A DNA stretch of 64,000 nucleotides from sequence record DRR723986_6929; one strand, 5' to 3'. How positions within the stretch are numbered: the first letter of the stretch is position 1; every line of letters starts with the position of its first letter. The notes under the pieces are model-generated. The model was not told the DNA's origin, made no database searches, and saw only the letters and a program-made list of their open reading frames with translations. Shown in pieces: positions 10,915 through 45,273 of this stretch. The position numbers and the translations under genes are program-made.

Positions 10915-12162
10915 ATGAAAAAAATGCGCCGTACCCTTGTGGGTATTGCAGCCGTCGGCTATTGCACAGCATTTGTGCCCTGGTCCACTGCAGCATTGGC
11001 GGACGACCAAAAGCGTCCAGTCCTCTATGAGTTTATCCAACAAACAGTTGGAGACCATCCATCCCTGAAAGCTTCAGAGGCCGCATTGTCTGCGGCTCGG
11101 GCTAGAGCCCGCGGTCAGGCTCAACCCGTCTATAACCCCGCATTGGCAGTTGGGTATGAAAATGCGGAACTAACCACCAAAGAGATTGGTATCTCTCAGG
11201 CCTTTGACTGGTCCGGTAAACGCGGGGCTCGGGCGGGCGTTGGCAGGGCTGAAATTGAGGCAGCGGAAGCAGCTTATGCTTTAGCCCGTAAAACACTTTT
11301 GACGGAAATTCTCACGGCGCTGGCAAATTATCGTACCGAGTTTCAGAAACACAGCGTGGCTGCTGAAAAAGAAGCGCTCAGTGTAAAATTTTTGGCCCTT
11401 GCAAAACGATTAAGCAGCGCCGGGGAAATGCCGCGCGCAGAATTACTAACCGCGCAACTGGCGCTGGCGGAATCTCGGGCAGCCAAAAACGAAGTAGCCG
11501 CGGCACTCTCCAATGCAAACGAACGGCTGATAGCGACGGTTGGTGAAGACCGTGGCTTCTGGCCAAGACTAGACGGTGTCCCAAGCATTTCCAGCATAGG
11601 TGCAGACGGCAGTAAATTTATCGTTGAAAAACTACCTGAAATGCGGCTGGCAATTGCTAAAACAGAGATATCCCGGGCCCGTATCAAGGTGGCTAAAACT
11701 GATCGCATGCCAGACCCGACGGTTGGCTTGAGAGTTGGGGAAGAAGGAAACAGTAATCTCATCGGTCTCTCGGTTTCCATGCCCATTCCAATCCGCAATA
11801 ACTACAAGGCTGAGGTTCAGGCCGCTGGCTCAGACCTTATAGTCGCCCAGCAAGACTATTATTCGGTAAACCGACAAGTCAGGGCCCGCTTCGATGCGAA
11901 CTTGAGACGCTACATATCCGCGTCCGACGCCTGGCGTGCTTGGGAAGAGAATGGGGCCGAACCACTTGGCGAGCAAAGAGCGCTTCTTGGTCAACTATTA
12001 GAAGCCCGAGAAATAAGCGCAATTAACTATCTCGTACAACTTAATCAAACTTTCACCACAGAAACTGCATCAATAGAGCTGAACGGTCGGCTCTGGAGCG
12101 CCTGGTTCGAGTGGCTAAATGCTGGTGCCAATATCAGCACCTGGCTGGAGACAATACAATGA
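10915..12162 (+). CDS. czcC: TolC-family outer membrane factor of heavy-metal RND
   Basis: OEP-like repeats; first gene of CBA operon. Confidence 0.8.
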   Translation: MKKMRRTLVGIAAVGYCTAFVPWSTAALADDQKRPVLYEFIQQTVGDHPSLKASEAALSAARARARGQAQPVYNPALAVGYENAELTTKEIGISQAFDWSGKRGARAGVGRAEIEAAEAAYALARKTLLTEILTALANYRTEFQKHSVAAEKEALSVKFLALAKRLSSAGEMPRAELLTAQLALAESRAAKNEVAAALSNANERLIATVGEDRGFWPRLDGVPSISSIGADGSKFIVEKLPEMRLAIAKTEISRARIKVAKTDRMPDPTVGLRVGEEGNSNLIGLSVSMPIPIRNNYKAEVQAAGSDLIVAQQDYYSVNRQVRARFDANLRRYISASDAWRAWEENGAEPLGEQRALLGQLLEAREISAINYLVQLNQTFTTETASIELNGRLWSAWFEWLNAGANISTWLETIQ

Positions 12163-13301
12163 ATAAATCCTTGAAATTTTCCCTCACGCTCTTTGCCTCA
12201 GGACTTGCGCTAAATGCAGGGTCCATAGAGCTGGGCTATATGAACTCGCCGGTTTATGCCGCTGAGCAAGAAGATCACGGTGAGGAAAACGTCGTCGAGA
12301 TGACAGCAGCCCAGAGGCGAGCGAACGGCGTCGTCACTGCTCTCGTTGCACGCCAGAAACTAGTGGAAACAATTGACGCTCCAGGAGAGGTTACGCTCAA
12401 TCAATATGCCACATCACAAGTAACGCCTCGCATAACAGCGCAAGTTGTCGCGCGCCATGTCCGCATGGGCGATACGGTGCGAAAAGGCCAGCCTATTATA
12501 ACGTTGACCAGTGTCGAGATGGCGGAAGCTCAGGGCGAATTGATCCTTGCGGAGAATGAATGGAAGCGTACTTCCAGGCTAGGTAGGGATGTTGTTTCTG
12601 AACAACGTTTCATTGAAGCGCAGGTTGCAGCCCAGCAGGCACGAGCTAAAGTCCTTGCCTACGGCATGACAGAAAATGGTCTCGTCAAATTCTCCAAGAA
12701 TGGCAGCGCGTTAGCAGCAATAGGACAATTCGACCTGGTTGCACCGCAGGACGGCACGATTATTAACGATAACTTTATTGTCGGACAGTTCATTGAGCCT
12801 GGCGACCTTCTGTTTGAAGTAAGCGATGAAAGGAAGATATGGGTCGAAGCCAAACTATCTCCGGACAAAGCATCAAATATTGAGATTGGATCACTCGCTT
12901 GGATATCCGAGGATGGTAACCGAACTGCGGGACAGGTGGTGCAAGTTTTTCATCAGGTTGACGAGGTAACCCGGACGCTTGCGGTGCGAGTGCAAGTGGA
13001 CAATGAAGCAGACGATTTTCATCCTGGCGAGTTTGTTGATGTCGCTATTTCGACGGGCGAAAGCGTGCCGACGATCGCAGTTCCAAACCAAGCAATTGTA
13101 CTGATGGCCGGGAAGCAGGTTGTCTTCAAAGTCGAAGGCAATGAATTGCACCCCACACCGATTGTTGTTGGTGCCACCCTCGGCGATTGGACCTCGGTTT
13201 TATCGGGCGTTTCTTTAGACGACGAAATTGTCATCAAGAACGCCTTCTTAGTTAAATCTCTTATCTTGAAATCCGAGATGGGCGAAGGCCACGGGCATTA
13301 A
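12159..13301 (+). CDS. czcB: RND membrane fusion protein
   Basis: Lipoyl-like halves, APQDG, ends GHGH; ATGA overlap with czcC. Confidence 0.85.
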   Translation: MNKSLKFSLTLFASGLALNAGSIELGYMNSPVYAAEQEDHGEENVVEMTAAQRRANGVVTALVARQKLVETIDAPGEVTLNQYATSQVTPRITAQVVARHVRMGDTVRKGQPIITLTSVEMAEAQGELILAENEWKRTSRLGRDVVSEQRFIEAQVAAQQARAKVLAYGMTENGLVKFSKNGSALAAIGQFDLVAPQDGTIINDNFIVGQFIEPGDLLFEVSDERKIWVEAKLSPDKASNIEIGSLAWISEDGNRTAGQVVQVFHQVDEVTRTLAVRVQVDNEADDFHPGEFVDVAISTGESVPTIAVPNQAIVLMAGKQVVFKVEGNELHPTPIVVGATLGDWTSVLSGVSLDDEIVIKNAFLVKSLILKSEMGEGHGH

Positions 13302-13312
13302 AGGAGGCTATC

Positions 13313-16300
13313 ATGTTAAATAAACTTGTTGAACTTTCCCTCCAGTATAAATTTCTGGTGGTCATCGGATTTGTTGTGGTCGCACTCCTTGGCGTGCGGG
13401 CAGTTAACAATATCCCAATTGATGCCTTTCCCGATGTAACGCCTATTCAGGTGAATATTTATACGGAATCACCCGGTCTGGCAGCGGAAGACGTGGAACA
13501 GCTGCTAACCTTTCCTGTCGAATCCGGCATGGCGGGCTTGCCTGCGGTGCAAGAGATACGCTCCGTCAGTCTTTTTGGCCTTTCCTATGTCGCCGTCTAT
13601 TTTGAAGACGATATGGACATATATTTTGCCCGCCGTCTGGTGATGGAGCGGCTAGCTGAGGTGGGAGACCGTATTCCGGAAGGCTACGGCACGCCTGAGA
13701 TGGGCCCTAACACTTCGGGTCTTGGTCAGGTGTTTTGGTACACCGTTGAGCGAGCAGACGAGGAGCTCAATGCTGCTGTTACCGATATGGATTTGCGCAC
13801 GCTGCAGGACTGGACAGTACGGTTGATACTGCGCACGGCCCCTGGAGTTGACGATGTGATGTCTTGGGGCGGCCAGGAACGGCAATATCAGGTTCAGATC
13901 GACCCGCAAAGGCTTATCAAATACGGCCTTGGTTACAAGGATATTATGGAGACGATTGAGGCCAATAACCGGCAGGTTGGCGGTCAATATATCGATCAGG
14001 GGCCAGAGCAATATCTGGTGCGCGGCCTAGGTCTCGTAAAAGGTGAAACTGATATTGGTAATATTGTTGTCAAGGTCAGTGACGGTACGCCCGTCTATCT
14101 GAAAGATGTTGCTGAGGTCAAGCAAGCTGGCGGACTGCGTTTTGGCGCCGTGACGCGAGACGGCAAGGAAGTTGTGCTCGGCATGGCATTGTCCCGGGTT
14201 GGTGAGAACGCCAAAAATGTGGTGGATGCCGTGAAGGTAAAAATCGCGATCACCGAACAGGCTTTGCCTGAAGGTGTTGTGCTCAAACCAATTTATGATC
14301 GGACTGATCTTGTCGAAAAAGCGATCTCTACAGCTGAAAATGCACTTATAGAAGGCTCTATTCTCGTGGCGATTGTCTTGTTCCTGTTTCTCGGGGAAAT
14401 TCGTTCTGCAATAGTTGTGATCACAGCCTTGCCGCTGGCGATGTTAATTGCCTTTATCTTTATGGACTACGCGGGACTTTCCGCAAACCTGATGTCGCTT
14501 GCCGGACTGGCGATTGGCATCGGCATGATGGTCGACGGCGCGGTTGTCATGGTTGAAAATTCTTTCCGGGTAATGGCAGAACGCCGAGAAGCCGGTGAGA
14601 AAGTGAACCGCACAGCGGCGGTGCTGGAGGCAGCAAGAGAAGTGGCTAATCCCATATCCTTCGCCATTCTGGTAATTATCGTTGTATTCATCCCGCTCTT
14701 CTCGCTGGAGGGGCTGGAAGGCAAGCTCTTCAAACCTATGGCCTTCAATATCAGTTTTGCCATGGCGGGTTCGCTTGTGCTGACCCTCACAATCATCCCG
14801 GTGTCGGCAGCGCTGATCCTGAAACCAAAGGCAGAGCGTGATACCTTTCTGGTAGCCTCAATCAAGAAGGCCTATTTGCCGTTCCTGGCGTGGTCGCTTG
14901 ACCATAAAAAGGTAGTTGTAAGCAGTGCAGCGGCACTGTTGATTGCTAGTCTCGCGCTGTTTCCACTGTTGGGTAAAGAATTCATGCCCCAGCTTCAGGA
15001 AGGTTCGATTATGTGGAGGGTTACATCGATCCCATCTGCGTCCCTCGATCAGTCAATAAAAATATCCAAGGATATTGAAGCTGCACTAGGTGAGTTTCCG
15101 GAGGTGGAAACAACACTTGCCATGATCGGGCGCGCCGAAAAGGGTGAAACCGCCGATGTTAATTACATGGAGATATACACAGCCCTAAAACCCGATAATG
15201 AATGGACCAGTGATCGCTCAATCGAAGAACTCGCTGATGCCATGCGAGAGAAACTAGAGGTCGTTGTACCGACAGCTGTGATTGCTTTTACCCAGCCTAT
15301 CCAGATGCGGGTCGAAGAGTTGATTTCAGGTGTGCGCGCAACGCTCGCGATCAAGCTTTACGGCGAAGATCTCGGAGAGCTTGATCGTATCAGTAGCGAG
15401 TTGAAAGACGCTGTCGCAAGTGTGCCGGGCGTCGCGGATCTCTCGCTGGAAGCAAACCTGGGTAAACCCCAGGTTCGCATCGAAGTGGACCGTATGGCAC
15501 TCGCGCGGTTCGGTATGAATGCTGATGATGTGCTCACGATTGTGCGTACTGGTATTGGCAATGAGCCTGTTAGCACCTTGATATCTGGCGTGAAGCGTTT
15601 TGATATCACTGCGCGGTTGCAGGATGCCTCCAAAACTTCAGTTGCAGCCATTAAGGCAATACCGCTCTCGACCTCATCTGGGGCAATTATTACGCTTGCG
15701 GATGTGGCCGATGTCACTGTGGCAGAAGGCTATAGCTTTGTCAGACGGGAACAACTCCAGCGCTACGCGGTTATCCAGATGGATGTGCGCGGCCGTGACG
15801 TGGACGGTTTCGTTCAGGAAGCAAACGAAATCATCGAGGCAACTGTGGATATGCCTCCCGGTTACTGGGTCGAATGGGGCGGTGCCTTTGAAAACCAGCA
15901 ACGGGCGCTTACCAGGCTTTCGGTGATCGTACCGTTAACGATCTTCTTCATCTTCGTCTTGCTCTACACGGCTTTCAACTCGGTACGTTTTGCAACTCTG
16001 ATCATTGCCAATGTGCCCTTTGCAACCGCCGGTGGCCTGATTGGCTTGTTCGTTACTGGGCAATATGTGTCGGTGCCGTCGGCAATTGGGTTCATTGCCG
16101 TGTTCGGGGTGGCGATGCTCAACGGCATCGTGCTGGTGAACTTTATCAACGAGCTGCGCGCAAAGGGCATGAGCGTGCATGATGCTGTTCGCAAAGGCAC
16201 TGAACTCAGGCTCAGGCCCGTACTGATGACTGCAAGTGTCGCAATCCTCGGGCTTGTGCCCATGCTCTTGTCTAGCGGGGTCGGTGCAGAAACACAGCGC

Positions 16301-16441
16301 CCGCTAGCAACCGTGGTGGTTGGCGGACTACTCACATCCACCCTGCTAACGCTTGTCCTTCTCCCCGTCATTTACGAGTGGATGGAAACTAGAGGCAATA
16401 CTCCAATGGAAAAAACATCAAAAACCGAGGTGCTCTCATGA
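13313..16441 (+). CDS. czcA: CusA/CzcA heavy-metal RND pump
   Basis: IDAFPDVTP, GMMVDGAVVMVEN, RLRPVLMTA. Confidence 0.9.
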   Translation: MLNKLVELSLQYKFLVVIGFVVVALLGVRAVNNIPIDAFPDVTPIQVNIYTESPGLAAEDVEQLLTFPVESGMAGLPAVQEIRSVSLFGLSYVAVYFEDDMDIYFARRLVMERLAEVGDRIPEGYGTPEMGPNTSGLGQVFWYTVERADEELNAAVTDMDLRTLQDWTVRLILRTAPGVDDVMSWGGQERQYQVQIDPQRLIKYGLGYKDIMETIEANNRQVGGQYIDQGPEQYLVRGLGLVKGETDIGNIVVKVSDGTPVYLKDVAEVKQAGGLRFGAVTRDGKEVVLGMALSRVGENAKNVVDAVKVKIAITEQALPEGVVLKPIYDRTDLVEKAISTAENALIEGSILVAIVLFLFLGEIRSAIVVITALPLAMLIAFIFMDYAGLSANLMSLAGLAIGIGMMVDGAVVMVENSFRVMAERREAGEKVNRTAAVLEAAREVANPISFAILVIIVVFIPLFSLEGLEGKLFKPMAFNISFAMAGSLVLTLTIIPVSAALILKPKAERDTFLVASIKKAYLPFLAWSLDHKKVVVSSAAALLIASLALFPLLGKEFMPQLQEGSIMWRVTSIPSASLDQSIKISKDIEAALGEFPEVETTLAMIGRAEKGETADVNYMEIYTALKPDNEWTSDRSIEELADAMREKLEVVVPTAVIAFTQPIQMRVEELISGVRATLAIKLYGEDLGELDRISSELKDAVASVPGVADLSLEANLGKPQVRIEVDRMALARFGMNADDVLTIVRTGIGNEPVSTLISGVKRFDITARLQDASKTSVAAIKAIPLSTSSGAIITLADVADVTVAEGYSFVRREQLQRYAVIQMDVRGRDVDGFVQEANEIIEATVDMPPGYWVEWGGAFENQQRALTRLSVIVPLTIFFIFVLLYTAFNSVRFATLIIANVPFATAGGLIGLFVTGQYVSVPSAIGFIAVFGVAMLNGIVLVNFINELRAKGMSVHDAVRKGTELRLRPVLMTASVAILGLVPMLLSSGVGAETQRPLATVVVGGLLTSTLLTLVLLPVIYEWMETRGNTPMEKTSKTEVLS

Positions 16442-16912: not shown

Positions 16913-17263
16913 ATGAAAATGAATAGCTACATGGCAACGGGAGCAGGTTTGTTGGTCACCCTAGGGCTGGGCTCTCCCGCCTGGGCACAACCGGTAGACC
17001 CTCTGTGCAGGCCGTCCATGATGTGGAGTGAAGGTTGGCACGGCTGGTTTGTTGGTCCGGTTATGATGGTCCTGTTTCTCGCAATTGCAGTTGCAGTCAT
17101 CTTGCTCATTGTCCGGTGGCTCGGAGGGAGCGCTCATGGCCACTCGGCGACACCTTCAGCGCCTCCACGGCAACACGCCATCGATATTCTCAAGGATCGT
17201 TTCGCACGCGGCGAGATCGATAAAGAAGAATATGAGGAAAAGCGTCGGCTTATCGAGAAATGA
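16913..17263 (+). CDS. SHOCT-domain membrane protein
   Basis: TM helix plus AIDILKDRFARGEIDKEEYEEKR. Confidence 0.85.
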   Translation: MKMNSYMATGAGLLVTLGLGSPAWAQPVDPLCRPSMMWSEGWHGWFVGPVMMVLFLAIAVAVILLIVRWLGGSAHGHSATPSAPPRQHAIDILKDRFARGEIDKEEYEEKRRLIEK

Positions 17264-17624: not shown

Positions 17625-18227
17625 ATGAGAGATCAAGAGAAACTATTCCCTGCAACGGTCATGCCTGATCCGAACTGGTGGCAAGCTTTATGGCCTGACC
17701 CTATCGGCGTTCTCAAGAATGTTGGGCTCAAAGAGGGATTAACAGCAATTGATCTATGTTGTGGTGACGGATTATTCACAACACCAATGTCTGTCTTGCT
17801 CGACGGTAAGGTTTATGCGGTTGATCTCGACCCCGATATGCTTGCTCTTGCGGAGCAAGCTATTAAGAAGGCGGGTGCTCCTTCCTGCACTTTTATCGAA
17901 GGTGATGCTCGGGATATGACTCAGCTTATTCCAGTTCAAGTCGATATCATCCTGATAGCAAATACATTCCATGGCGTTCCGGAGCAGACGGAGCTAGCTC
18001 GCAATGCCTCAGAAGTCTTAAACAGCGACGGGAAATTTATCATTATCAATTGGCATAAGCTGCCACGCGAAAAAACGACGGTTTTAGGCGAACCAAGAGG
18101 TCCTCGTACTGAACTTCGCATGTCACCCGAAGATGTCCGCACCGTTGTCGAACCGGCAGGGTTTCAATTGGCTGACCTAGTTGAAATTCCTCCTTACCAC
18201 TATGGGGCTGTGTTTAAAAGATCATGA
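17625..18227 (+). CDS. Class I SAM-dependent methyltransferase
   Basis: IDLCCGDG motif I, YAVDLD, ANTFHG. Confidence 0.85.
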   Translation: MRDQEKLFPATVMPDPNWWQALWPDPIGVLKNVGLKEGLTAIDLCCGDGLFTTPMSVLLDGKVYAVDLDPDMLALAEQAIKKAGAPSCTFIEGDARDMTQLIPVQVDIILIANTFHGVPEQTELARNASEVLNSDGKFIIINWHKLPREKTTVLGEPRGPRTELRMSPEDVRTVVEPAGFQLADLVEIPPYHYGAVFKRS

Positions 18228-18381
18228 ATATTCGAACCAATACCAGCGATTAGCATAGTTCGAAAGGAATAAAAGCAAATGGGTATGATGGATAAGACGA
18301 TGGAAGGCTGGACGGATACTTTCGCTGAAAAGTCGGTGCAATATTAAAACCATATATTTCATGGAAACTGTTGCGAGCATT

Positions 18382-18400
18382 AATAATAATGATTATTATT
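18382..18400. promoter_or_regulatory. Fur-like box
   Basis: Perfect 9-1-9 dyad AATAATAAT-G-ATTATTATT upstream of FTR1 gene. Confidence 0.6.
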
Positions 18401-18433
18401 TGCATAAATAAAATAAAGAATGGCCGAGTATAT

Positions 18434-20347
18434 ATGAACCGCATATTCCCTTTCATTTTCCCGCTGACATTTTTGTTAGCCATCGCGACGGCAATTCAGG
18501 CAGACACCGGCGACCAGTTGGTGCAACTCGTCGACTATGTTGGTGTGGACTATTCTGAAGCTGTTTCAGAAGGCATTATCGTCAATCCGGGTGAATATGC
18601 GGAAATGGTGGAGTTCACTGCCATAATCGAAACCACTGTGGCAAGTATCGCGGATTCTCCAATCGCGAGCGAATTGATGCAGCAAGCCCGTGAATTGAGT
18701 GAACTGATTAAAAATAAAGCCCCGGCTGGTGAAGTTCGGGCACTTGCGCATACCATGCGAACTGCCATCATCCACCTTTATGACTTGAAAGTGGCCCCTG
18801 ACCAGGTGCCCGATCTGCTGCAAGGCCAGACGTTATACCAAAAAACATGTGCGGCATGTCACGGAGCCTATGGCAACGGCAATGGGGAGCTGGGGAAAGA
18901 CCTGGACCCACAACCAACTGACTTCACAGAGGTAGCCCGCTTCCGGCAACGGTCATTGTATGCATTGTTTAATACAATCACTTACGGCGTTGAAGGGACT
19001 GGAATGTCAGATTATTCACAGCTTTCGACGGTAGATCGTTGGAATTTGGCTGCCTATGTAGGCAGTATTGGTGTCGATAAAGAGCTTGCGGCTAACGGCA
19101 AAAGGGCGTGGCAACAGCTTAACGGTAACGATACCGGAGTAGATGTGAAAGCCTATGCGGGCCTTTCGCCTGATGAGGCTATCGATCAATGGACCAATGG
19201 CTATGGGTTGATGGCATATTTGAGAACAGAACCTGAAGTTCTGTTTGATTTCAAAACGCCGCCGCTCACTGTGGCAATGAATTCGCTTCAAACCAGTTTG
19301 AACGCTTATGAGCAAGGCGAGACAAAAAAGGCCTACGAGTTCGCGCTCACCGCTTACCTTGATGGATTTGAGCTTGTGGAGGCAAATCTCGCCGCATTGG
19401 ATGCCAGTCTCATGCGGGAAATTGAGAGTGAGATGCTGCTGCTGCGCAATGATATCACCACTCAAAGCCCTTTAAACAGTGTCACTGCGCGCATCCAAAA
19501 ACTCCAGTCGTTGCTGCAACAAGCGCAATCAAAAATGGCTGAAAAGGGGAGCTTGACACCAGCTGCTGCATTCGTAACCAGCCTTATCATTTTACTCCGG
19601 GAAGGCCTGGAGGCTTTACTCGTTATTGTGGCGCTTTCGGCTTTCCTGTTGAAAACCGGCCGCCGGGACGCCATGCCCTACTTGCATGCTGGCTGGATCG
19701 CAGCGTTGATTTTAGGTCTGCTTACTTGGGTTGCGTCTGAATATTTTGTGCAAATCAGCGGAGCGACGCGAGAGGTTGCTGAAGGAGTTGCAGCACTCGT
19801 AGCGTCGGGTATGCTGTTATTCGTTGGCTATTGGCTTCATAGCAAAACAAGCGCGTCTGGATGGCAGGCATTCATTCAAAAAAGTCTTAAAGCTGCTCTC
19901 AATAAACGGACCCTATGGGGGCTCGCCGGACTTTCCTTCATATCCGTCTACAGGGAAGTTTTTGAGACAATTCTCTTTTATCAGGCACTATGGGCCCAGG
20001 CGGCGTCCGGTAGTGCTGACTGGGTGATGGGCGGTTTTCTGGTTGCCACACTTATACTGGTGCTTGTCGCGGGACTGGTTATAAAATTTAGTGTGAAGCT
20101 TCCACTACGACAGTTTTTTGCAAGTACGGGCATTCTTCTCCTGATTTTGTCTTTTATTTTTGCCGGCAAAGGCATTGCAGCCCTTCAGGAAGCGGGCGAA
20201 ATACCGCAAACGATGCTGCCGTTTGACGCTGTAGAGTGGTTGGGGATATTCCCCAGCCAGGAAGGCCTGCTTTTACAGGCTACCATTCTTGTTGCATCCG
20301 CAGCTTTTTTGACCAGAGGATTTTTCGCCAGACGGCAAAAAGAGTGA
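18434..20347 (+). CDS. Cytochrome c / FTR1 iron(lead) permease, PbrT/EfeU-like
   Basis: CAACH; REGLE and REVFE motifs. Confidence 0.9.
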   Translation: MNRIFPFIFPLTFLLAIATAIQADTGDQLVQLVDYVGVDYSEAVSEGIIVNPGEYAEMVEFTAIIETTVASIADSPIASELMQQARELSELIKNKAPAGEVRALAHTMRTAIIHLYDLKVAPDQVPDLLQGQTLYQKTCAACHGAYGNGNGELGKDLDPQPTDFTEVARFRQRSLYALFNTITYGVEGTGMSDYSQLSTVDRWNLAAYVGSIGVDKELAANGKRAWQQLNGNDTGVDVKAYAGLSPDEAIDQWTNGYGLMAYLRTEPEVLFDFKTPPLTVAMNSLQTSLNAYEQGETKKAYEFALTAYLDGFELVEANLAALDASLMREIESEMLLLRNDITTQSPLNSVTARIQKLQSLLQQAQSKMAEKGSLTPAAAFVTSLIILLREGLEALLVIVALSAFLLKTGRRDAMPYLHAGWIAALILGLLTWVASEYFVQISGATREVAEGVAALVASGMLLFVGYWLHSKTSASGWQAFIQKSLKAALNKRTLWGLAGLSFISVYREVFETILFYQALWAQAASGSADWVMGGFLVATLILVLVAGLVIKFSVKLPLRQFFASTGILLLILSFIFAGKGIAALQEAGEIPQTMLPFDAVEWLGIFPSQEGLLLQATILVASAAFLTRGFFARRQKE

Positions 20348-20549
20348 CAGATTTTCTTCCCGTCCACCGATTACTATAATGAATCTACCTTGGGTCAAGG
20401 ATATTTAATTTGTTGAAATTGGGCATTCAATTAAAGTTGACGGCGCTTAGGAATTAAAGAAACCCAAGGCCGCGGACACCCGCTTCCCGGGGGTTGAGCA
20501 CAAAAAAGTGACTTATACGAGAGCGGGTAGCTTGATACCGTGTGCTGGC

Positions 20550-20888
20550 ATGACAAACTTATCCCAACATATCTCAGCACTGGTTCTTATTGCATTCGTA
20601 GCAATGATCATCGATGTGATTGGCGTTTATGAAGCTGTCGCCCATGAAGACGCAACAGCCTCTATCGTCATGGGATGTCACGGTACGGAATCGCCAAGCG
20701 ATTGGGAACATGAAGAACCCTGTACCAGTGCCAGTGTTGTGCCCTGTCACTTCTGCGCCATTCTCATCACACTATCTGTTGAAAGCTCTGCCGGAGAATT
20801 TCAAGCTTTGAACCAAGGGCACCCTCAATATTTCACTGATACCATCGCTGAGCTTGACCCTGACCCACCCAAAACACTCCTCCTCTGA
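20550..20888 (+). CDS. Exported leader protein, CutF/DUF2946-like
   Basis: N-terminal hydrophobic segment, CHFC, ends ELDPDPPKTLLL. Confidence 0.65.
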   Translation: MTNLSQHISALVLIAFVAMIIDVIGVYEAVAHEDATASIVMGCHGTESPSDWEHEEPCTSASVVPCHFCAILITLSVESSAGEFQALNQGHPQYFTDTIAELDPDPPKTLLL

Positions 20889-20949
20889 TTTTAGATATTC
20901 ACGCGGCTTAGGTGCCGCAACGTTACAATAATCAATGGAGGAAAGGCGA

Positions 20950-21630
20950 ATGAAGCCTGTTTCCAACATATGCACCTCGTTATATGAGGCCAGAGACCAC
21001 GCTGTGATTGGTGTGAGCCCTTTCAATAGCTATTTTTCCGAAGCTCGACTTACGGACCTGTTTTCATGGGCGAAGCAGCACTTCAATAGTTTCCACGTGT
21101 TCGTGCCCGACGAAGCGACCCGCTACACGCTTGAAGCTGCGGGTTATAGCCAAGCACGGGCAAAGAAAAAAGCCAGACGGCAAGCAAACTATCTTCTGAA
21201 CAAGATCAAGCGGGCGCTATTGAAAACATCTCCCAAACTTGATCTCTCGTTTGTGCTCACAAATGGAGTGCTCAGAAACAATGGCCGCTATAATGCGCTT
21301 CTGGCAAAGGTTGAGCAGCGTTTTGCAACTGACAGGGTGTTCAGGCAGCAATGTCTGGAATGTACCCGCTGGGTCCTTGAAAATCAGGTCGAAGAAATCG
21401 ACACAATTGATGAGGCTGCGTTGTTACATGCTGTTCAGTATTTCCTCGAGGAAATGCCGCTCTTTATGGACAGTGCCAGCATCGTCAGCGCGCACACATC
21501 GGTGTTCTGCTATCATCAATGTCCTGCAGTCTTGCAAGGACTTTATGAGGACCGCTCAGACGGCCTCATAGATGAGCAACAGGGCTTCTTAATAGTCAAA
21601 AAGCCCATGCTGGCAACAAAAGTAACCTAA
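20950..21630 (+). CDS. tRNA-dependent cyclodipeptide synthase (NYH subfamily)
   Basis: HAVIGVSPFNSYF, YFLEEMPLF, CYHQ, QGFLIV; GGAGG RBS. Confidence 0.9.
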   Translation: MKPVSNICTSLYEARDHAVIGVSPFNSYFSEARLTDLFSWAKQHFNSFHVFVPDEATRYTLEAAGYSQARAKKKARRQANYLLNKIKRALLKTSPKLDLSFVLTNGVLRNNGRYNALLAKVEQRFATDRVFRQQCLECTRWVLENQVEEIDTIDEAALLHAVQYFLEEMPLFMDSASIVSAHTSVFCYHQCPAVLQGLYEDRSDGLIDEQQGFLIVKKPMLATKVT

Positions 21631-21664: not shown

Positions 21665-22075
21665 CTATTCTTCCAACAAACGATCAATAATAGCGCAGTC
21701 CGGGGTTTCACCGCCGCTGCATTCAGCAGCCATGCCTTCCAGTGCAGCTTGCATTTTGGCGAGGTCGTTGATTTTGCCAGCAATGACACCGGCATTGACG
21801 AGAGCAATATCTCTTACTTCATCGCAAGCGTATGACCCATCAACCATTTCCAATAGCCCTGTCACTTCCTGATTGGTAAAACCGAGTTCGCGCGACCTGC
21901 GGATAAACTTCAATCGCTTCAGATGATCCATTGAATAGCACCGATAGCCAGCTTCTGAGCGCGGCGGATCAGGCATAAGGCCAATTTTCTCATAAAAACG
22001 TATGGTCTCCAAGTTTACGCCAGCCTCTTTCGCCAGCTTGCCTCTCGTGTATTCACGTTTTTGAGATATGGTCAT
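21665..22075 (-). CDS. merR: Mercury-responsive regulator
   Basis: MerR HTH, three Cys, divergent from merTPA. Confidence 0.8.
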   Translation of the reverse strand: MTISQKREYTRGKLAKEAGVNLETIRFYEKIGLMPDPPRSEAGYRCYSMDHLKRLKFIRRSRELGFTNQEVTGLLEMVDGSYACDEVRDIALVNAGVIAGKINDLAKMQAALEGMAAECSGGETPDCAIIDRLLEE

Positions 22076-22082
22076 TTTTCTC

Positions 22083-22113
22083 TTTACCCTGTATTTAATA
22101 CAGGGTGTAGGCT
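22083..22113 (+). promoter_or_regulatory. mer promoter/operator
   Basis: TTTACC-19bp-TAGGCT; perfect dyad ACCCTGTATT-T-AATACAGGGT. Confidence 0.85.
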
Positions 22114-22199: not shown

Positions 22200-22574
22200 A
22201 TGAGTGATGTTAAACAGCCGGTGGACAGTAGCAAAAACTGGAGCACCAGCCTTGGTGCCGTTGGTGCAATATTGGCTTCGTCATGCTGTATTTTACCGTT
22301 TGTCTTCCTGATGCTGGGTGTTAGCGGCTCATGGATTGGCAACCTTACAGTTATGGAGCCTTATAAGGATTATTTTGCATTGATTGCGCTTGGGTTTTTG
22401 GGCGTCGGTTTTTGGCAGGTTTACTTCAAGCCAAAGAAACAATGCGATGAAGGCTACTGTGCAACGCCGAAGTCTGAGCGTGTCATCAAATCGGTTTTAT
22501 GGGTTTCCACAGTGCTGGTTTTGCTGGCGCTGACGGTTGATTTTTGGGCACCGATCCTCGGTGAATATATTTAA
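22200..22574 (+). CDS. merT: Mercuric transport protein
   Basis: ASSCCILP, WIGNLT, C-x4-CA, three TMs. Confidence 0.9.
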   Translation: MSDVKQPVDSSKNWSTSLGAVGAILASSCCILPFVFLMLGVSGSWIGNLTVMEPYKDYFALIALGFLGVGFWQVYFKPKKQCDEGYCATPKSERVIKSVLWVSTVLVLLALTVDFWAPILGEYI

Positions 22575-22589
22575 ACGTAAACAAGGAGA

Positions 22590-22931
22590 ATGAAGATGAA
22601 ACGATTGATCAAAGCATGTGCTATCGCCGTTGTACTCGGCGTGGCTATGCCGGTTACCGCTGTTATGGCGGATGATGCCAGCACGACGACACAGCAAGTT
22701 GCCGAAAAGAAAGTAACTTTCGATATTGAAAAAATGACCTGCGCCATGTGCCCGATCACAGTGCGCAAAGCGATGGAGAAGGTTGACGGTGTTTTATCTG
22801 TTGTAACTGATTATGACGCCAGAACAGCAGTTGTGACTTTTGACCCGGCAAAGGCAAATGTTGAAGCTATTGCCAAGGCCTCTGAAAATGCCGGTTACCC
22901 TGCTATTCTCGATGATAGCCAAGGCTCATAA
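22590..22931 (+). CDS. merP: Periplasmic mercury-binding protein
   Basis: Signal peptide, MTCAMCPITV. Confidence 0.9.
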   Translation: MKMKRLIKACAIAVVLGVAMPVTAVMADDASTTTQQVAEKKVTFDIEKMTCAMCPITVRKAMEKVDGVLSVVTDYDARTAVVTFDPAKANVEAIAKASENAGYPAILDDSQGS

Positions 22932-22933
22932 AT

Positions 22934-24379
22934 ATGGCGTTTGACAGACCAGAGAGCAGTTGCTGCTCACCGGAAAACACCGAAACCAAAACAAGTGTTA
23001 TGGTGATTGGTGCTGGCTCGGCAGGATTCTCAGCCGCAATTACGGCTGCAGAAGCAGGTGCAGTGGTAACACTTGTCGGCGCGGGCACCATTGGCGGCAC
23101 CTGCGTTAACGTTGGCTGTGTGCCGTCTAAAACCATGATCCGGGCTGTTGAAGCGCTTTATCAGGCCCCTCATGCCGCACGGTTTAATGGCATCACCTCC
23201 ACGGCTAAGGTGCTCGACTGGCAGGCCGTTGTCGCGCACAAGCAACAGCTTGTGGAAGAGTTACGCCAAGCCAAATATATTGACGTTCTGCCTGCCCATC
23301 CAGACGTGCATTATATAGAAGGTCGCGCACAGCTTACTGAAGACGGCGTTATGGTCGACGGCAAGCTTCATACGCCTGACAAGATTATCATAGCCACGGG
23401 TTCATCAAACATGGTGCCTCCGATCCCCGGTATTGAAACGGTTGATCATCTGGACAGTACGTCGGCCCTCGACCTTGAAACCCTCCCGAGTTCCATGATC
23501 ATCATTGGCGGCGGTGTAATCGGATGCGAACTTGGTCAAATGTTTGCCCGTGCTGGCGTTAAGGTCACAATATGCTGTCGCAGTCGTTTGGTGCCAGATA
23601 TGGAGCCCGAGATTAGCCAAGCTCTGCAAACCTATCTGGAGGCTGAAGGCATCACTGTATGCGCTGGCATTGGCTACCAAGCGATTGAACAGCACGGCGA
23701 CGGCATTAGGCTTCACTGTGAAAACAAAGGTCAGGCCAATATACTTGAGGCGGAAAAAGTTTTACTGGCCGCTGGGCGCAAACCAAACACGGCTGGCCTT
23801 GGACTTGAAGACGCGAGCGTTTCACTTGCCAGGAACGGCGGTATTGAAGTTGACGCTTTGATGCGCTCGACCAATCCCAATATTTATGCCGCTGGCGATG
23901 TTACGGGCACGGATATGTTTGTTTATATGGCGGCCTACGGAGCAAAGCTCGCCGCCCAGAATGCAACAGGCAGTGACACGCGGCCCTATAATAATGCTGC
24001 CATGCCTTCGGTTGTTTTTACTGACCCGCAAGTCAGCAGCGTTGGCCTGACGGAATCTCAGACTAAAGAGCAAGGCCACAGTGTGAAAACAAGCGTGATC
24101 ACGCTTGACCATGTACCGCGCTATCTGGCGGCGCGCGATACACGTGGTTTGATCAAGCTTATAGCTGACAGGGAGACGGACAAACTGCTGGGAGCCCATA
24201 TATTGGCACCCGAAGGCGGCGAACTCATTCAAACCGCTGTGATTGCCTTAAAGGCTAACATGACCGCAACAGAGCTGGGACAGACCATATTCCCGTACCT
24301 TACAGGGGTTGAAGGGCTCAAACTGGCCGCACAAACCTTCGATAAGGATGTCAGTACGCTATCTTGCTGCGCCGGATAA
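22934..24379 (+). CDS. merA: Mercuric reductase (no NmerA domain)
   Basis: GGTCVNVGCVPSK, C-terminal LSCCAG. Confidence 0.95.
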   Translation: MAFDRPESSCCSPENTETKTSVMVIGAGSAGFSAAITAAEAGAVVTLVGAGTIGGTCVNVGCVPSKTMIRAVEALYQAPHAARFNGITSTAKVLDWQAVVAHKQQLVEELRQAKYIDVLPAHPDVHYIEGRAQLTEDGVMVDGKLHTPDKIIIATGSSNMVPPIPGIETVDHLDSTSALDLETLPSSMIIIGGGVIGCELGQMFARAGVKVTICCRSRLVPDMEPEISQALQTYLEAEGITVCAGIGYQAIEQHGDGIRLHCENKGQANILEAEKVLLAAGRKPNTAGLGLEDASVSLARNGGIEVDALMRSTNPNIYAAGDVTGTDMFVYMAAYGAKLAAQNATGSDTRPYNNAAMPSVVFTDPQVSSVGLTESQTKEQGHSVKTSVITLDHVPRYLAARDTRGLIKLIADRETDKLLGAHILAPEGGELIQTAVIALKANMTATELGQTIFPYLTGVEGLKLAAQTFDKDVSTLSCCAG

Positions 24380-24422: not shown

Positions 24423-24965
24423 ATGGCGACCACCGACCTTAAACTTGAAGAGCAAGGAAGCCTGGCCAAGCCGGGACCGATTGGCCGTCTTGTCAGGCTT
24501 GCATTGGGGTTGCTTTGCATCTCGTATGTTTATGGGCTTTGGCAACTGCAGGGTGATTTCTTAACAGAAGCTGGTTCGATCAGGCCGCTCGTGTGGAACG
24601 GTATTTTACCAAGCTTGTTTTTGATCAGCTATGCTATCAACATCGGCTTTTCCCGCGCATGGAAAAAGTGGCCTGCAATCATAAGTCTTTTATTCCTCAC
24701 AGGCATCGCTGTGTTGGGATACATGCAGTCCGGCTCAATTGGAACAGTGTTATTGGCAAAGACAATTCACTGGTGGGAGCTATATCTCTACACGCATCTT
24801 GGTCTGGCTTTCGTTCTGTCAGCAACAATCGCGACTCCCGGCTGTGAGATGCGGGCGTTTCATCACCTGTATTCGCTAATAACCGGCACTTCCACCAAAG
24901 AGCACCACTGTCCGGTTGGGCCGCTCCAGCCTATTGATCGGTGGGAGGCAACACGGCTGAGCTAA
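24423..24965 (+). CDS. Membrane protein downstream of merA
   Basis: About four TMs; TPGCEMRA and HHCPVG. Confidence 0.65.
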   Translation: MATTDLKLEEQGSLAKPGPIGRLVRLALGLLCISYVYGLWQLQGDFLTEAGSIRPLVWNGILPSLFLISYAINIGFSRAWKKWPAIISLLFLTGIAVLGYMQSGSIGTVLLAKTIHWWELYLYTHLGLAFVLSATIATPGCEMRAFHHLYSLITGTSTKEHHCPVGPLQPIDRWEATRLS

Positions 24966-25661: not shown

Positions 25662-26380
25662 ATGCCAGAGATAATCAGGAAAGAGATAAACAATAAAGAG
25701 ATAAACCCGAGAGAGCAAAACGGGAAAGAAAAAAGTCGAAAAGACGCAAGCCAATCAGATACGTCAAAGCTGACGGTTTATAGCGAGGTCACGGGCCGGA
25801 TTATCGCTGAACTGGAAGCCGGTCGGGTGCCATGGGTTCAACCGTGGTCGAGCACCTCGCACGGGGCACGCGTGGGCTTGCCGGTCAATGCCCAGACGGG
25901 CAAAACCTATAGCGGCATCAATATTTTGCTGCTTTGGGGTCAAGTGCTGAAGCGCGATTTTTCGGCACAAAGCTGGCTCACCTACAGGCAAGCCCAAACG
26001 CTCGGCGGCAATGTGCGCAAGGGCGAAACATCAACAACCATTGTATATGCCGACAGCTTTACCCCCAAAGATGAACGTAAAGCCGCATGGGAAGAAGGTC
26101 GCGATCCGCAGCGCATCCCGTTCCTCAAGCGCTACCGGGTTTTCAATCTCGATCAATGCGACGGTCTGCCCCGCGATCTCTACGCCCAAGCACCCGACCT
26201 GCCCCCATGCGAGCAACTGCCCATCGCTGAAAAGCTGATCAAGGCAACCGCCGCAGATTTCAGGATTGGCGGCAACCGCGCCTTTTATGTACCGAGCGAA
26301 GACTATATCCAAGTGCCGCCGCAACCACTTTTCCACGCCCAAATCGACTATTACCGCACCTGTTTTCACGAATTGGGCCA
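25662..26380 (+). pseudogene. ardC: ArdC antirestriction protein, 5' part (interrupted)
   Basis: PWVQPW, YSGINILLL, WLTYRQA, VFNLDQ, ends FHELGH at insertion. Confidence 0.9.
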
Positions 26381-26405
26381 TAATGCCGCGCTTCGGATTA
26401 TGCCG
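26379..26405. repeat. RIT left inverted repeat
   Basis: CATAATGCCGCGCTTCGGATTATGCCG. Confidence 0.9.
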
Positions 26406-26463
26406 CGCTGACCCATCAATCTTTCGGTAACATAGATCTTTCAGCGCGGCACATCGGCATAAT

Positions 26464-27462
26464 CTACAGGGCCTCCAAGAACGACAACAGCTCGTCGCCG
26501 GGTCGATAACGCCCATTTGGAGCATTGACAGGTTTCGTCAAAGCCATCGCTTTTTCCTTCAGTTCGATATCAGCGTGGATATAGACCTGCGTCGTCTCGA
26601 CGGATTCATGGCCCAGCCAAAGGGCGATGATGGTTCGATCTACACCGCTTTGTAGAAGCTGCATTGCAGCAGTGTGGCGCAGAACATGTGGTGTGACGCG
26701 CTTCAATCTAAGGGTCGTGCTATTCAGCGCTGCCTTGGCCGCATTTTTCCGAACAATTCGCTCAATCGCGTCCCTGCTCAAAGGCGTGCCTCGGATCGTC
26801 GCAAACAGCGGATCGTTGGATGCCGCACAGGTTTCGGCCAACCACACTTTCAATGCGTTTCGGCTGTCTGTCCTTAGAGGTGTTGCGCGCTCCTTTCGGC
26901 CTTTGCCCACGCATCTGACATGAGACCCCGTTCCGAGTTCAACATCAGCCACGCGCAGGCCGATCAATTCCGAGACACGCAAGCCCGTCTGGAGCGTGGT
27001 CAGCAGTAGGACCCGATCACGCCGACCGAACCAAGTCGACTGATCGGGTGCCTTCAGCAATGCCTCCATCTCATCGCGTGTCAGAAAGTCCACAACACGT
27101 TTTTCGTGCCGCTTGGACGGCATCGCCAGCACCCTTTGGCAATGATGCAACAATTGAGGTTCACAACCTGCCACATATTTGAAGAATGACCGAATGGCGG
27201 CAAGGCGCGTGTTTCGACTTCGTGCGCTATTGCCTCGTTCTTCTTCGCAAAAAGTTAAAAAATCCCCGATGATGTCGGCGTCGATATGTGCAACATGTAG
27301 GTCTGTTGGGGGCCGCTTGGTTTGCGCTTCCGCGTATTTGAGCAAGAGCCTGAAGGTGTCACGATAGCTGGCAATCGTGTTCGGGCTTGCCTGCATTTGC
27401 GTCAAGAGCCGCTCGGTAAAGAACCGTTGCACGAACACTGGCAATGGATAGGTCGCAATCAT
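26464..27462 (-). CDS. ritC: RIT tyrosine recombinase C
   Basis: TGLRVSE, HVLRH, LGH..TTQVY. Confidence 0.9.
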   Translation of the reverse strand: MIATYPLPVFVQRFFTERLLTQMQASPNTIASYRDTFRLLLKYAEAQTKRPPTDLHVAHIDADIIGDFLTFCEEERGNSARSRNTRLAAIRSFFKYVAGCEPQLLHHCQRVLAMPSKRHEKRVVDFLTRDEMEALLKAPDQSTWFGRRDRVLLLTTLQTGLRVSELIGLRVADVELGTGSHVRCVGKGRKERATPLRTDSRNALKVWLAETCAASNDPLFATIRGTPLSRDAIERIVRKNAAKAALNSTTLRLKRVTPHVLRHTAAMQLLQSGVDRTIIALWLGHESVETTQVYIHADIELKEKAMALTKPVNAPNGRYRPGDELLSFLEAL

Positions 27463-28403
27463 GATGCATCCTCCAAAACCCGCTGTTCGGCCCGCGCGGC
27501 GGCGAGCTGCATGAGTTCTGGCACGGCTTCGATGTACCAGAATGTGTGCTCCGGCTTAGAGTGTCCGAGATACGTGCTGAGCTTGTACATTTCGCATTCA
27601 ATGTCCCTGCCATCGCGGAACCAATCCAGAATGGTGTGGACGGCAAAGCTATGTCTCAAATCGTGAATGCGAGGTCCGTGACCGTGGCGGTTGAAGGATT
27701 GAGGGGATCGCAACCCGATATTTTGGCTAACTTGCGCGAAGTTGTAACGCGCCCCGCAATCGCCAGCCGGTTCACCATCTTCCTTGATGAAGAACCGTCG
27801 CGACTGATCGTCGACCAACCGATCTCTCAAATTGGCATAGGATGCTAGCCGCGTGGCGGTATCCTTGTTGATCGGAAGCTGTCGATCTTTTCCGTTCTTG
27901 GTGTTCCTGACGACCAGAACAGCGTTGTCCAGATCAATATCATGTTGATCCAAAGACAGTGCTTCATTGACCCGCATTCCTGTCACAGCGATCAATCCGA
28001 AGAGGGTTTGCCACAATGCAGCCCGCAGGCCATACGGTGACGTTAGTCGACCGGCCTCAGCGACGATATCTGCAATTTGCTTGGGTGCATATATGTACGG
28101 GACACGCCTTCTATAGCGGCCTGCAACAAGCTGGCTGGGCGGGATCTCGGTCTCATCGTCGTGTTCCGCAAGCCAGAAGGCAAATCTACGAACCATGCCG
28201 AGGCGACCAAACCACGTGTTGTTGTCCGCACTGCCATAGTTCTCTTTCCAGTCGAGGAACAAGGTTGTTGAGATCAGATGACGCCCGCTCTCATCGCCGT
28301 AAGTCGCGAACTTGCGTAGGACTCGTTCTTCGAAAGATAGGTCAAAACCCATCGCGCGGCGCAGTGCCAGATATTCGTCAAGCCGTTGTGAGAGCGTCTT
28401 CAT
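27459..28403 (-). CDS. ritB: RIT tyrosine recombinase B
   Basis: TGMRVNE, HDLRH, LSTYLGH..TFWY. Confidence 0.9.
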   Translation of the reverse strand: MKTLSQRLDEYLALRRAMGFDLSFEERVLRKFATYGDESGRHLISTTLFLDWKENYGSADNNTWFGRLGMVRRFAFWLAEHDDETEIPPSQLVAGRYRRRVPYIYAPKQIADIVAEAGRLTSPYGLRAALWQTLFGLIAVTGMRVNEALSLDQHDIDLDNAVLVVRNTKNGKDRQLPINKDTATRLASYANLRDRLVDDQSRRFFIKEDGEPAGDCGARYNFAQVSQNIGLRSPQSFNRHGHGPRIHDLRHSFAVHTILDWFRDGRDIECEMYKLSTYLGHSKPEHTFWYIEAVPELMQLAAARAEQRVLEDAS

Positions 28404-29647
28404 TGCACGTCCCCCGCAGTTGGCCAAGGGCGCGAGATTGAGCCCAGGGCATCCACATCGTGTTGCGCATAAATCGTCGTGGTCAGCGGAGACCGGTGAC
28501 GCAGCACGTCCCCAATGTCAGAGAGCGATGCACCCTTACGCAACATGTCAGTGGCAAGGCTGTGTCGTAGAATATGGGTGCCGATATAGGCTTGTGGCGG
28601 GCTGATTCCTGTTGCGTCATAAGCGTCACGCAAAATCCAGCGCAGGATTTGAGCATCCTTAAACCTCTTGAATGGCGGTTTTACCGAGACAAACAACGCA
28701 CGGGCCTGCCCCCGGCGTTCGTTCTGAATGTAATCCACAATCGCTTCGCCAACCTCTGCGGACATCGGCATCCGGTCTTGCAACTGTCCTTTGCCCCGGA
28801 TCAGTATCTCACCCGCACGCCAATCGATGTCATCTAACTCTATCGCTGTCACCTCTGGGGCTCGAAGGCCCAGACGGGCGATAAGCATCAGCATTGCATA
28901 GTTGCGTCGGCCTGTTTTCTTGTGACCTCGAACCACATCTAACAGGCGGTTGACTTGGTCTGGCTCGAGATATCGGGGGATGCCGGTCGGCTTTGGTTGC
29001 CGCGCCTTTGGCACCGATTTGCTCAGGTTCCGTTCTGTTTTTCCGCTCCAAAACAAGAATTGGAAGAGATTGCGAAGATGTGACGGACCAGTTTTGTCGC
29101 GCGGCGCATTTTGCTCTTCGCGTAGTCGGAGAATGAAGCCCGATATGTCGTCGGGTTTGATCGCATTCAAATCACCCAAACCCATACCGAATTTTGCAGT
29201 CAAAAAACGCTCGTAGAAGCGAAGGCAATGATAGATCGTATCGCTGGACAGCCCACGCTGAACGCGGAGATAGGTCTCGTACTCGCGTTTAAGGCAGGCT
29301 CTAGGGGTCATGTCCAACGGAGGGGGCAGACGTGTAGGGGCATCTGCGTTCTCAATCAAATAGTCCCTGAACCGATTCAGGCGGTATCGACAATGTTTTT
29401 GGTCTTTCGGAGAAGCGGCGTTGATGATCGGCAAGGCAAGTTGGTCCATGCGGTCATTGGTCAAATCAGCGGGACCAAGCTTGGCCGCATCCATTACAGA
29501 CCAAAGGGTCCCGGCTGTGGTGCCGTATTTGGCAACGGAACCCTGACTGTAACCCTCAGCCTCAATCTGTGACGCGAAGCGCTCCGAGTGGTTGCCCGTG
29601 TGCTTACTTGTCTTCGTCGGGCGATCTGATTGCGTGTCGTTTTCCAT
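28400..29647 (-). CDS. ritA: RIT tyrosine recombinase A
   Basis: LGLRAPE, HILRH, LRH..TTIY. Confidence 0.9.
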   Translation of the reverse strand: MENDTQSDRPTKTSKHTGNHSERFASQIEAEGYSQGSVAKYGTTAGTLWSVMDAAKLGPADLTNDRMDQLALPIINAASPKDQKHCRYRLNRFRDYLIENADAPTRLPPPLDMTPRACLKREYETYLRVQRGLSSDTIYHCLRFYERFLTAKFGMGLGDLNAIKPDDISGFILRLREEQNAPRDKTGPSHLRNLFQFLFWSGKTERNLSKSVPKARQPKPTGIPRYLEPDQVNRLLDVVRGHKKTGRRNYAMLMLIARLGLRAPEVTAIELDDIDWRAGEILIRGKGQLQDRMPMSAEVGEAIVDYIQNERRGQARALFVSVKPPFKRFKDAQILRWILRDAYDATGISPPQAYIGTHILRHSLATDMLRKGASLSDIGDVLRHRSPLTTTIYAQHDVDALGSISRPWPTAGDVQ

Positions 29648-29992
29648 AGGTATTTCCTTCATTTGGTTGAAGGGTAAACTTATCACAGATCACGAATGCA
29701 GACGCTCAGCGCGTGAACTTGGAGGTGCACACTGCGGACGAAGCGGACATCCTCAGTTCATACTTGAACGTCTGGATTTCGCCAGAAGCGGAAGGTCATC
29801 GGAGTCAAAATCACGACAGTTGAAAGGCTCGAACCGACCCAACGCGGACAGTTTTAATCCCCGGTATAAGGGTGTGTGTGGGCAAAAACATTTAACCCAT
29901 GTGCCAAATAAAAAAGCCACCGCTCGTCTGTGCTTATTTGTTTAGGCATTCCTTGGATTTCAAACCTATCAATACCAGGATTTGCTTAAATA

Positions 29993-45270: not shown

Positions 45271-45273
45271 GCG

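Follow-up and report, generated by a model that had tools for sequence, protein, structure and literature searches.

Why should a gene for a cyclodipeptide synthase (CDPS) lie directly beside a mercury-resistance (mer) operon? This question is raised by a 64,000-nucleotide (nt) stretch of the sequence record DRR723986_6929 (hereafter the window, meaning the whole stretch analysed), in which a CDPS gene of the NYH subfamily occupies positions 20950..21630 on the + strand, next to merR and the merTPA genes. Mercury resistance is among the best-studied bacterial detoxification systems, and we know of no described mer accessory gene that is a biosynthetic enzyme for a small molecule; our search of the open-access and bioRxiv literature likewise found none. 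Our strongest new result is comparative: members of the CDPS family have been recruited again and again to loci for mercury and copper resistance, and in some lineages even into the operon. This suggests an as yet undescribed small-molecule helper for metal detoxification.

The cyclodipeptide synthase and the neighbourhoods of its relatives

Family profiles and matches to solved structures identify the gene product as a CDPS. PF16715 matches with E = 2.9e-62 (210.7 bits, cut-off 27; residues 6-222 of 231) and TIGR04539 with E = 4.1e-70 (235.7 bits, cut-off 45), and a Foldseek search with an AlphaFold2 model (pLDDT 91.2, pTM 0.88) has solved CDPSs as all its top matches (best 7azu, TM 0.85, E = 2.7e-18). 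The program-listed open reading frame (ORF) at 20935..21630 (+), of 231 amino acids (aa), is longer than the likely gene. Because all close homologues are 226 aa long and start with MKP, and because a Shine-Dalgarno-like GGAGG can be read at 20937..20941 (+), 8 nt 5′ of the ATG at 20950, this ATG is the likely true start, in agreement with the coordinates of the initial annotation of this DNA. Residues were mapped through an ungapped phmmer alignment to AlbC chain 3oqv_A (offset +14). In the numbering of the 226-aa protein, the catalytic and NYH residues S23, N26, Y114, Y164, E168, Y188 and H189 are all present, and we take their AlbC equivalents to be S37, N40, Y128, Y178, E182, Y202 and H203, respectively. 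N26, Y188 and H189 make up the NYH signature, and S23, Y114, Y164, E168 and Y188 are invariant or nearly so in the alignment of homologues. The ratio of non-synonymous to synonymous substitution rates (dN/dS) is 0.14-0.16 against 88%-identical relatives, and the gene is therefore under purifying selection. No tailoring enzyme stands next to it, a methyltransferase gene 2.7 kb upstream is missing from one otherwise syntenic locus (L001), and merR-merTPA follow downstream. The sequence evidence thereby confirms an intact, stand-alone NYH enzyme in a heavy-metal island beside mer, as the initial annotation had described it, and we predict that this enzyme is catalytically active.

How often relatives of this enzyme sit by metal genes was assessed on a homologue set of 80 species-level genome loci, 74 metagenome loci and two plasmid loci. 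The window proteins were compared by tblastn with the 80 genome loci, and 25 queries, with mer, copper and cysteine genes added, were compared with all 156 loci. Clustering at 90% identity gave 110 representatives, 77 of them with at least 5 kb of flank. The initial annotation had named a lack of linkage between homologues and metal genes as one observation that would count against its reading; instead, mer structural genes accompany the CDPS gene in 16 of the 77 representatives and other metal-efflux genes in 10, to which can be added a MerR-family or HMA gene alone in three and CysK or MFS alone in another three. Mer genes stand even by homologues just 37-48% identical to the window CDPS, their sources being Sphingomonadales, Marinicaulis/Parvularculaceae, Bdellovibrionota, Streptomyces/Nocardia and several metagenomic lineages; Pfam confirms MerB, MerT, MerF and NmerA-MerA at the mer-linked loci.

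This linkage did not arise just once. On a tree of 143 CDPS sequences, which leaves out 14 of the 156 loci with a match shorter than 190 aa or interrupted (L076, L107, L123, L126, L128, L132, L142, L145, L147 and L149-L153), the mer label changes 12 times, against a mean of 25.0 when labels are shuffled, and none of 500 shuffles gave a number as low. At least eight of these 12 changes are forced by well-supported branches, that is, mer linkage arose independently at least eight times on the tree. In each of five whole genomes (3.4-6.0 Mb) the CDPS is single-copy and so is MerA at 45% identity or more, other matches reaching at most 35%, and the two genes are separated by 357, 776, 1333, 3663 and 3700 nt; the chance of such closeness is about 0.2% per genome by our own arithmetic, which assumes random placement. 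The control, a cLL-type CDPS of a Bacillus plasmid, has the P450-MarR-MFS neighbours expected for it and no resistance genes. These observations support a linkage of CDPS homologues to metal genes far above chance and beyond mere co-residence on islands.

The gene orders are as varied as the lineages. In one Bdellovibrionota-type locus (L106), merR-merT-merP-CDPS-NmerA/merA follow one another on one strand with gaps of 30 nt at most, and from this order we infer that the CDPS gene is transcribed from a MerR-controlled promoter; in another (L020), the CDPS stop overlaps the start of merA. Sphingomonadales show NrsF-CDPS-x-x-MerB-MerT-MerP-MerF-MerA-MerB on a single strand. The two ORFs between CDPS and merB in this arrangement (114 and 232 aa; 10668-11707 in L006) are conserved across eight loci; Pfam recognises neither of them, and a PDB search with the longer one, of 232 aa (L006 11009-11704), found nothing. 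In Marinicaulis/Parvularculaceae, CDPS is preceded by a small ORF for a Cys/His protein, considered below, and followed by convergent MerB ... merA-merP-merT-merR; such a small ORF-CDPS pair also adjoins merB-A-P-T-R in L110. Further homologues stand by czcCBA (L013), by CDF and RND-pump genes (L018) and, on a Legionella plasmid, with a CsoR-like regulator, a copper ATPase and an RND system. A Streptomyces mirabilis metal-resistance plasmid carries a cysteine-synthase-family gene, an MFS gene and CDPS in a row, and the published abstract on the plasmid-bearing strain describes it as highly nickel-tolerant.

Four Streptomyces-type loci have TTGACC and a perfect 10+10 dyad, ACCTTGCCCT-A-AGGGCAAGGT, between the CDPS gene and a divergent MerR-family regulator (L023 9921-9941, L047 7892-7912, L051 9924-9944 and L120 9927-9947), and a fifth has a degenerate copy of this element. 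A heavy-metal P-type ATPase gene lies downstream of CDPS in the dyad-bearing loci, and the best NCBIfam matches of the regulator are CueR and CadR, under cut-off. The layout presumably resembles a CueR-controlled promoter, and these CueR-box-like elements point to a probable metal control of CDPS in the relatives.

Substrate pockets and the likely product

What would such an enzyme make? Read through the AlbC alignment, the P1 pocket of the window CDPS is VGFPNLFF (V19, G21, F51, P53, N105, L171, F172 and F186), which coincides with the by-eye V,G,F,P..L,F,F of the initial annotation and adds the N, and the P2 pocket is CWVNQPA. The same columns gave VGVT-LFN and LTYTQLP in two distant Streptomyces proteins, compared with the cYY motifs printed as VGVTMLFN and LAYSQLP; since the printed motifs are reproduced, the pocket positions agree with those of the literature. 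The sole Cys-using motif compared is that of CDPS 102 of Algicola sagamiensis (P1 VGYPSIFF, P2 SAIKDPT), which produces 73% cCG and 27% cCC (Gondry 2018, Table 2, PMC5816076). It is placed there, by its P1, with a 60-member cCC group, and predictions of specificity of this kind are called uncertain by the same authors (Gondry 2018, PMC5816076). The P1 of the window CDPS resembles that of CDPS 102, with five of eight positions identical and three conservative differences, and the mer-linked relatives have VGYPSLFF, VGYPSFFF or IGYPSIFF. In one clade (L108, L116 and L078), the gene order is HMA-CDPS-pyridoxal-phosphate (PLP) enzyme, and the PLP enzymes of L108 and L116 pass the CysK equivalog TIGR01139 (459 and 448 bits, cut-off 351). 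On balance, we find it somewhat more probable than not that the window CDPS incorporates Cys. The likeness to the cyclo(Cys-Cys) group that the initial annotation had noted is partly supported, by the resemblance in P1 to CDPS 102 and by CysK in one clade.

Several observations weigh against a Cys-containing product. In P2 only one of seven positions is identical between the window CDPS and CDPS 102, which is itself a cCG maker, and the commonest P1 of the family, CGFPWLFF, resembles LGLPWLFF and LGFPWFMF, printed for Pro-accepting enzymes (Gondry 2018, Table 2). CysK next to CDPS is limited to a single lineage, and the PLP enzyme of the S. mirabilis plasmid stays under every NCBIfam cut-off, its best model being of the SbnA family. 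The CDPS tree contains no characterised cCC enzyme: a profile search returned no Algicola protein among the best 120 of 452 matches, and the CDPS 102 pocket motifs are absent from all 188 proteins screened. An enzyme making a Pro-, Leu- or Met-type cyclodipeptide, with a merely superficial likeness to the Cys group, would suit the difference in P2, the xG[FL]PW[LF]xF motifs printed for P1 of Pro- and Leu-accepting CDPSs and the stated uncertainty of specificity predictions (Gondry 2018). We think such a Cys-free product unlikely, though by no means negligible: the fifth P1 residue is not W but N in the window CDPS and, as in CDPS 102, S in many of the mer-linked relatives, and one clade has CysK beside CDPS. 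Moreover, this large family, with many members from Actinomycetota, lacks the P1 motifs printed for Tyr-, Trp- and Phe-accepting NYH enzymes, and the cLL group is described as Firmicute in the literature that we consulted; by elimination, the 60-member cCC group would therefore be the best fit.

Compared by printed motifs alone, the cCC/cCX group and the window CDPS differ at six of the seven P2 positions of CDPS 102; they share the Pfam family and the NYH signature, and both are stand-alone enzymes with no tailoring enzyme nearby. The main text of Gondry 2018 (PMC5816076) contains none of the terms metal, mercur, copper, chelat and thiol and no neighbourhood terms, and a genomic metal context is therefore not part of the features of the group as known from that text. 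The terms metal, mercury and cysteine are also absent from the main text of two broad CDPS surveys. Among the matches listed in searches of open-access and bioRxiv papers (titles and abstract starts), none links CDPSs to mer, MerR, heavy-metal or copper loci.

The small Cys/His protein and a possible role in metal handling

The CDPS gene has a companion. Upstream of it, the ORF list contains a gene for a small secreted-type Cys/His protein of 112 aa (20550..20888, +), whose start we re-set from alignments; ATG 20550 is probably the true one. The protein has a signal-peptide-like N-terminus, a GCH motif, more Cys and a C-terminal DPPK, features from which we read it as a secreted metal-binding protein, predicted to be periplasmic. 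A hidden Markov model (HMM) made from eight members and run on 157 sources matches only directly 5′ of CDPS and in its orientation, in 21 loci besides the window and nowhere else, which answers the search for such pairs elsewhere that had been proposed with the initial annotation. Members of the family share a basic N-terminus and a hydrophobic segment often closing in an A-x-A-like site, two invariant Cys, one of them within G-C-H, along with other Cys, and PP[KR] at the C-terminus. The family is small, with 13 proteins from a word-indexed search of 5.8 billion clusters and 27 at E ≤ 0.001 in an HMM scan of 1.84 billion representatives. No relative was found in Pfam (searched up to E = 1), NCBIfam or the PDB, and the structure model is poor (pLDDT 57). 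The initial annotation had seen a metal-type leader here: the small Cys/His ORF is indeed present, but its signal-peptide-like N-terminus, its dN/dS of 0.25-0.28 and the fact that CDPSs use aminoacyl-tRNAs and not peptides lead us to reject a leader or precursor peptide, and it appears to code for a separate signal-peptide-bearing protein.

In a genome of the same genus (L178), the gene for a cytochrome c-FTR1 fusion is followed by merR after 135 bp, with the small ORF and CDPS both missing; given this joint absence, the two genes come and go as one unit. A metagenomic protein of 222 aa (P0107) matches the small-ORF profile with its residues 44-147 and also matches the CDPS N-terminus; it is a gene call that joins the two genes or else a read-through product. 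The small Cys proteins of DUF2946 (PF11162) are of like size, with an N-terminal hydrophobic segment and scattered Cys/His, and in the Atlas one nearest cluster to the small ORF has DUF2946 in 26% of its members; however, Pfam gives nothing for the window protein up to E = 1, two distant relatives reach just E = 0.13-0.16, and membership of DUF2946 is not supported by the profile test.

Thirty-five nt 5′ of the small ORF, a non-coding motif, GAGCAC-N3-A-N2-GT.A.TTA (20496..20515, +), was recognised by its invariance among loci: it is identical in the window and in L001-L004, five Kordiimonadaceae-type loci with diverged flanks. It occurs once in the window and in four of the 80 genome loci. 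It may be a promoter or an operator, and it fits no type of either known to us.

Our joint explanation is that an active stand-alone CDPS and the small Cys/His protein form an accessory metal module making a Cys diketopiperazine, a proposal in which our belief and our doubt are about equal. Small ORF and CDPS would constitute a two-gene module inserted between the cytochrome c-FTR1 gene and merR. The CDPS would condense Cys-tRNA(Cys) with a second aminoacyl-tRNA, probably also carrying Cys, to give a small, uncharged diketopiperazine with one thiol or two, which would bind soft metals such as Hg(II), Cu(I) and Cd(II). This molecule could buffer metals in the cytoplasm, hand Hg(II) to MerA or be exported, with the Cys/His protein working outside, in the periplasm. 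As an optional addition, the module would supplement a complete merRTPA system. More tentatively, and with somewhat more doubt than belief, the proposal can be extended to the whole family: these stand-alone enzymes would produce a ligand dedicated to soft metals, cyclo(Cys-Cys) or another Cys diketopiperazine of this kind, bacteria would have placed their genes into mer and cop operons time and again, and in one branch the periplasmic Cys/His protein would work with them; this would be the first role for the cCC group.

Known mer accessory genes are transporters, lyases and regulators. If the proposal is true, a biosynthetic enzyme for a thiol diketopiperazine would bring in a component unlike any of these: resistance to mercury, copper and cadmium would gain a small-molecule arm, and there would be a hint of how the cell provides itself with a suitable thiol ligand for Hg(II) or Cu(I). 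A large CDPS group, to whose products no role has yet been assigned, would acquire a function, and the orphan cCC group its first physiological role. A chelator derived from a CDPS has a precedent in pulcherriminic acid, which binds iron. The pulcherrimin pathway (the CDPS YvmC and the P450 CypX), clustered with a regulator and an MFS gene as in our Bacillus control locus, likewise uses a CDPS product as chelator, but it needs the P450 for its iron-binding groups, targets Fe(III) and does not lie within resistance operons, whereas the window has no tailoring enzyme and it is the Cys thiols that would bind the metal. With respect to canonical mer operons (merRTPA with optional merB, C, D, E, F and G), the window has the full set of merR, operator, merT, merP and merA with their hallmark cysteines, and its CDPS behaves as an optional accessory gene, found in some operons and missing from close relatives. 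The Streptomyces lividans SLP3 metal island combines mobility, mer genes and a peptide-forming enzyme that uses aminoacyl-tRNA, for which a function in metal homeostasis has been proposed (Cruz-Morales 2013, PMC3698927). That system is a hybrid of a non-ribosomal peptide synthetase and a leucyl/phenylalanyl-tRNA transferase, not a CDPS, and CDPSs appear in that paper solely among the references (PMC3698927).

A number of findings weigh against a metal role for the module. Forty-five of the 77 representatives, 22 of them from named Actinomycetota genomes, have no metal genes nearby with the query set used; these metal-less CDPS loci adjoin LysR regulators, permeases and PAS proteins, and some of the calls of other metal genes are RND matches at 30-38% identity that could be non-metal pumps. 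In the window, CDPS and merR converge, with merR between the CDPS gene and the mer operator at 22086-22106; the CDPS gene is outside the merTPA transcript, and a search 5′ of the small ORF and CDPS found no MerR-type operator; transcription from a MerR-controlled promoter is thus a feature not found for the window CDPS. The module is also patchily distributed. Among 61 genomes around the nearest relative, CDPS occurs in four, all of one genus (4/32), and merA in 14; three genomes have both, adjacent, and one with CDPS only is 78% complete. All five mer-only loci inspected, with MerA 73-88% identical, lack the CDPS module. In L177 (G031, contig C122), a CDPS remnant persists at 2388-2495, with its ATG changed to ATA and homology stopping about 38 codons in, and around 3.7 kb of other DNA separates it from an intact merR-merTPA. 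From this patchy presence, the mer-only loci and the remnant it follows that CDPS is an optional add-on, dispensable for mer.

Could the diketopiperazine, with or without Cys, be a signal, redox or antioxidant molecule in metal stress, for instance a regulator ligand or a thiol/disulfide buffer, and no chelator? A hint of signalling that also speaks against chelation comes from two Legionella plasmids, in which CDPS overlaps the start of a gene of about 680 aa with a response-regulator annotation (L155 7965-10737; L181 7971-10725). NrsF, an anti-sigma-F-type membrane protein that we take to be linked to metal stress, is encoded upstream of CDPS in Sphingomonadales, and no exporter adjoins the window CDPS. 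We nevertheless hold a signal or redox molecule to be improbable, since the MFS and cysteine-synthase-family genes that accompany CDPS on a metal-resistance plasmid, and CysK after CDPS in one clade, fit bulk production better than signalling, and the location of CDPS between merP and merA suggests a role in the Hg path itself.

That the diketopiperazine is unrelated to metals and CDPS merely shares mobile islands with mer, czc and cop would agree with the conjugative nature of the window (ArdC, three tyrosine recombinases, a T4 coupling protein (T4CP) and a TrwC relaxase), with the patchy occurrence of CDPS, with close mer operons devoid of it or holding a decayed copy and with the representatives that have no metal gene, but we judge such a passive association to be no likelier than a signalling or redox role, in view of CDPS inside mer operons in one lineage, the CDPS/merA stop-start overlap in L020, the metal-sensor-type dyad directly 5′ of CDPS in Streptomyces-type loci, the at least eight independent associations with differing gene orders and the single-copy CDPS within 3.7 kb of a single-copy merA in five of five genomes. 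The reading as an accessory metal module is the one that we retain.

The heavy-metal island around the module

The module lies on a conjugative heavy-metal island, carried by a marine, Kordiimonas-like alphaproteobacterium. The closest named relative of the locus is Kordiimonas aquimaris (CDPS 88-89% and CzcA 99% identical), and blastn of the locus against plasmids gave no match. Upstream of the module, the island encodes a CDF transporter (9795-10445), a czcCBA-type RND system (10915-16441), a SHOCT protein (16913-17263), the S-adenosylmethionine-dependent methyltransferase mentioned above (17625-18227) and the fusion of a cytochrome c with an FTR1/EfeU-type iron permease (18371-20347, +; 658 aa). 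Its conserved counterparts in L001, L081 and L177 are 89-90% identical to this fusion, and that of L178 is 63% identical.

On the other side, the merR gene (21665..22075, -) ends 34 nt from the CDPS stop. Its product is recognised by Pfam MerR_1, MerR and MerR-DNA-bind and has Cys84, Cys119 and Cys127; TIGR02051 is its best NCBIfam match, under cut-off. A dyad search located the mer operator at 22086..22106, a perfect 10+10 dyad, ACCCTGTATT-T-AATACAGGGT, which is unique in the window, where no chance match is expected, and which lies within the promoter TTTACC - 19-nt spacer - TAGGCT (hexamers identified by eye). The start of merT (22200..22574, +) was re-set to MSDVK, the Pfam MerT match beginning at residue 60 of the longer ORF; the protein has a CC pair in its first membrane helix. 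It is followed by merP (22590..22931, +), for an HMA-domain protein with MTCAMC, and by merA (22934..24379, +), whose 481-aa product has no NmerA domain, a CVNVGC redox pair and a C-terminal CC. After merA, an ORF for a membrane-like protein of 180 aa (24423..24965, +) with Cys141 and Cys163 (PGCEMRAF ... HHCP) also occurs in L001-3, L107, L008 and L095 as well as in mer operons without CDPS (L174-L179); searches of Pfam, NCBIfam and the PDB gave no match for it, and it may be an unnamed mer accessory gene.

Further downstream come ArdC (25662-26411), three tandem tyrosine recombinases (26464-29686, -) and the T4CP and TrwC relaxase genes (43162-48168). A recombinase trio like that beside ArdC in the window precedes merR-merT-merP-CDPS in L021. 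Finally, 53133-55418 (-) encodes a single 760-aa protein with Prok-E2_A, ThiF (E1-like) and Prok-JAB domains, after which comes a 431-aa ORF without family match; judging from these domains, this region looks like a ubiquitin-like conjugation module of the defence-island kind.

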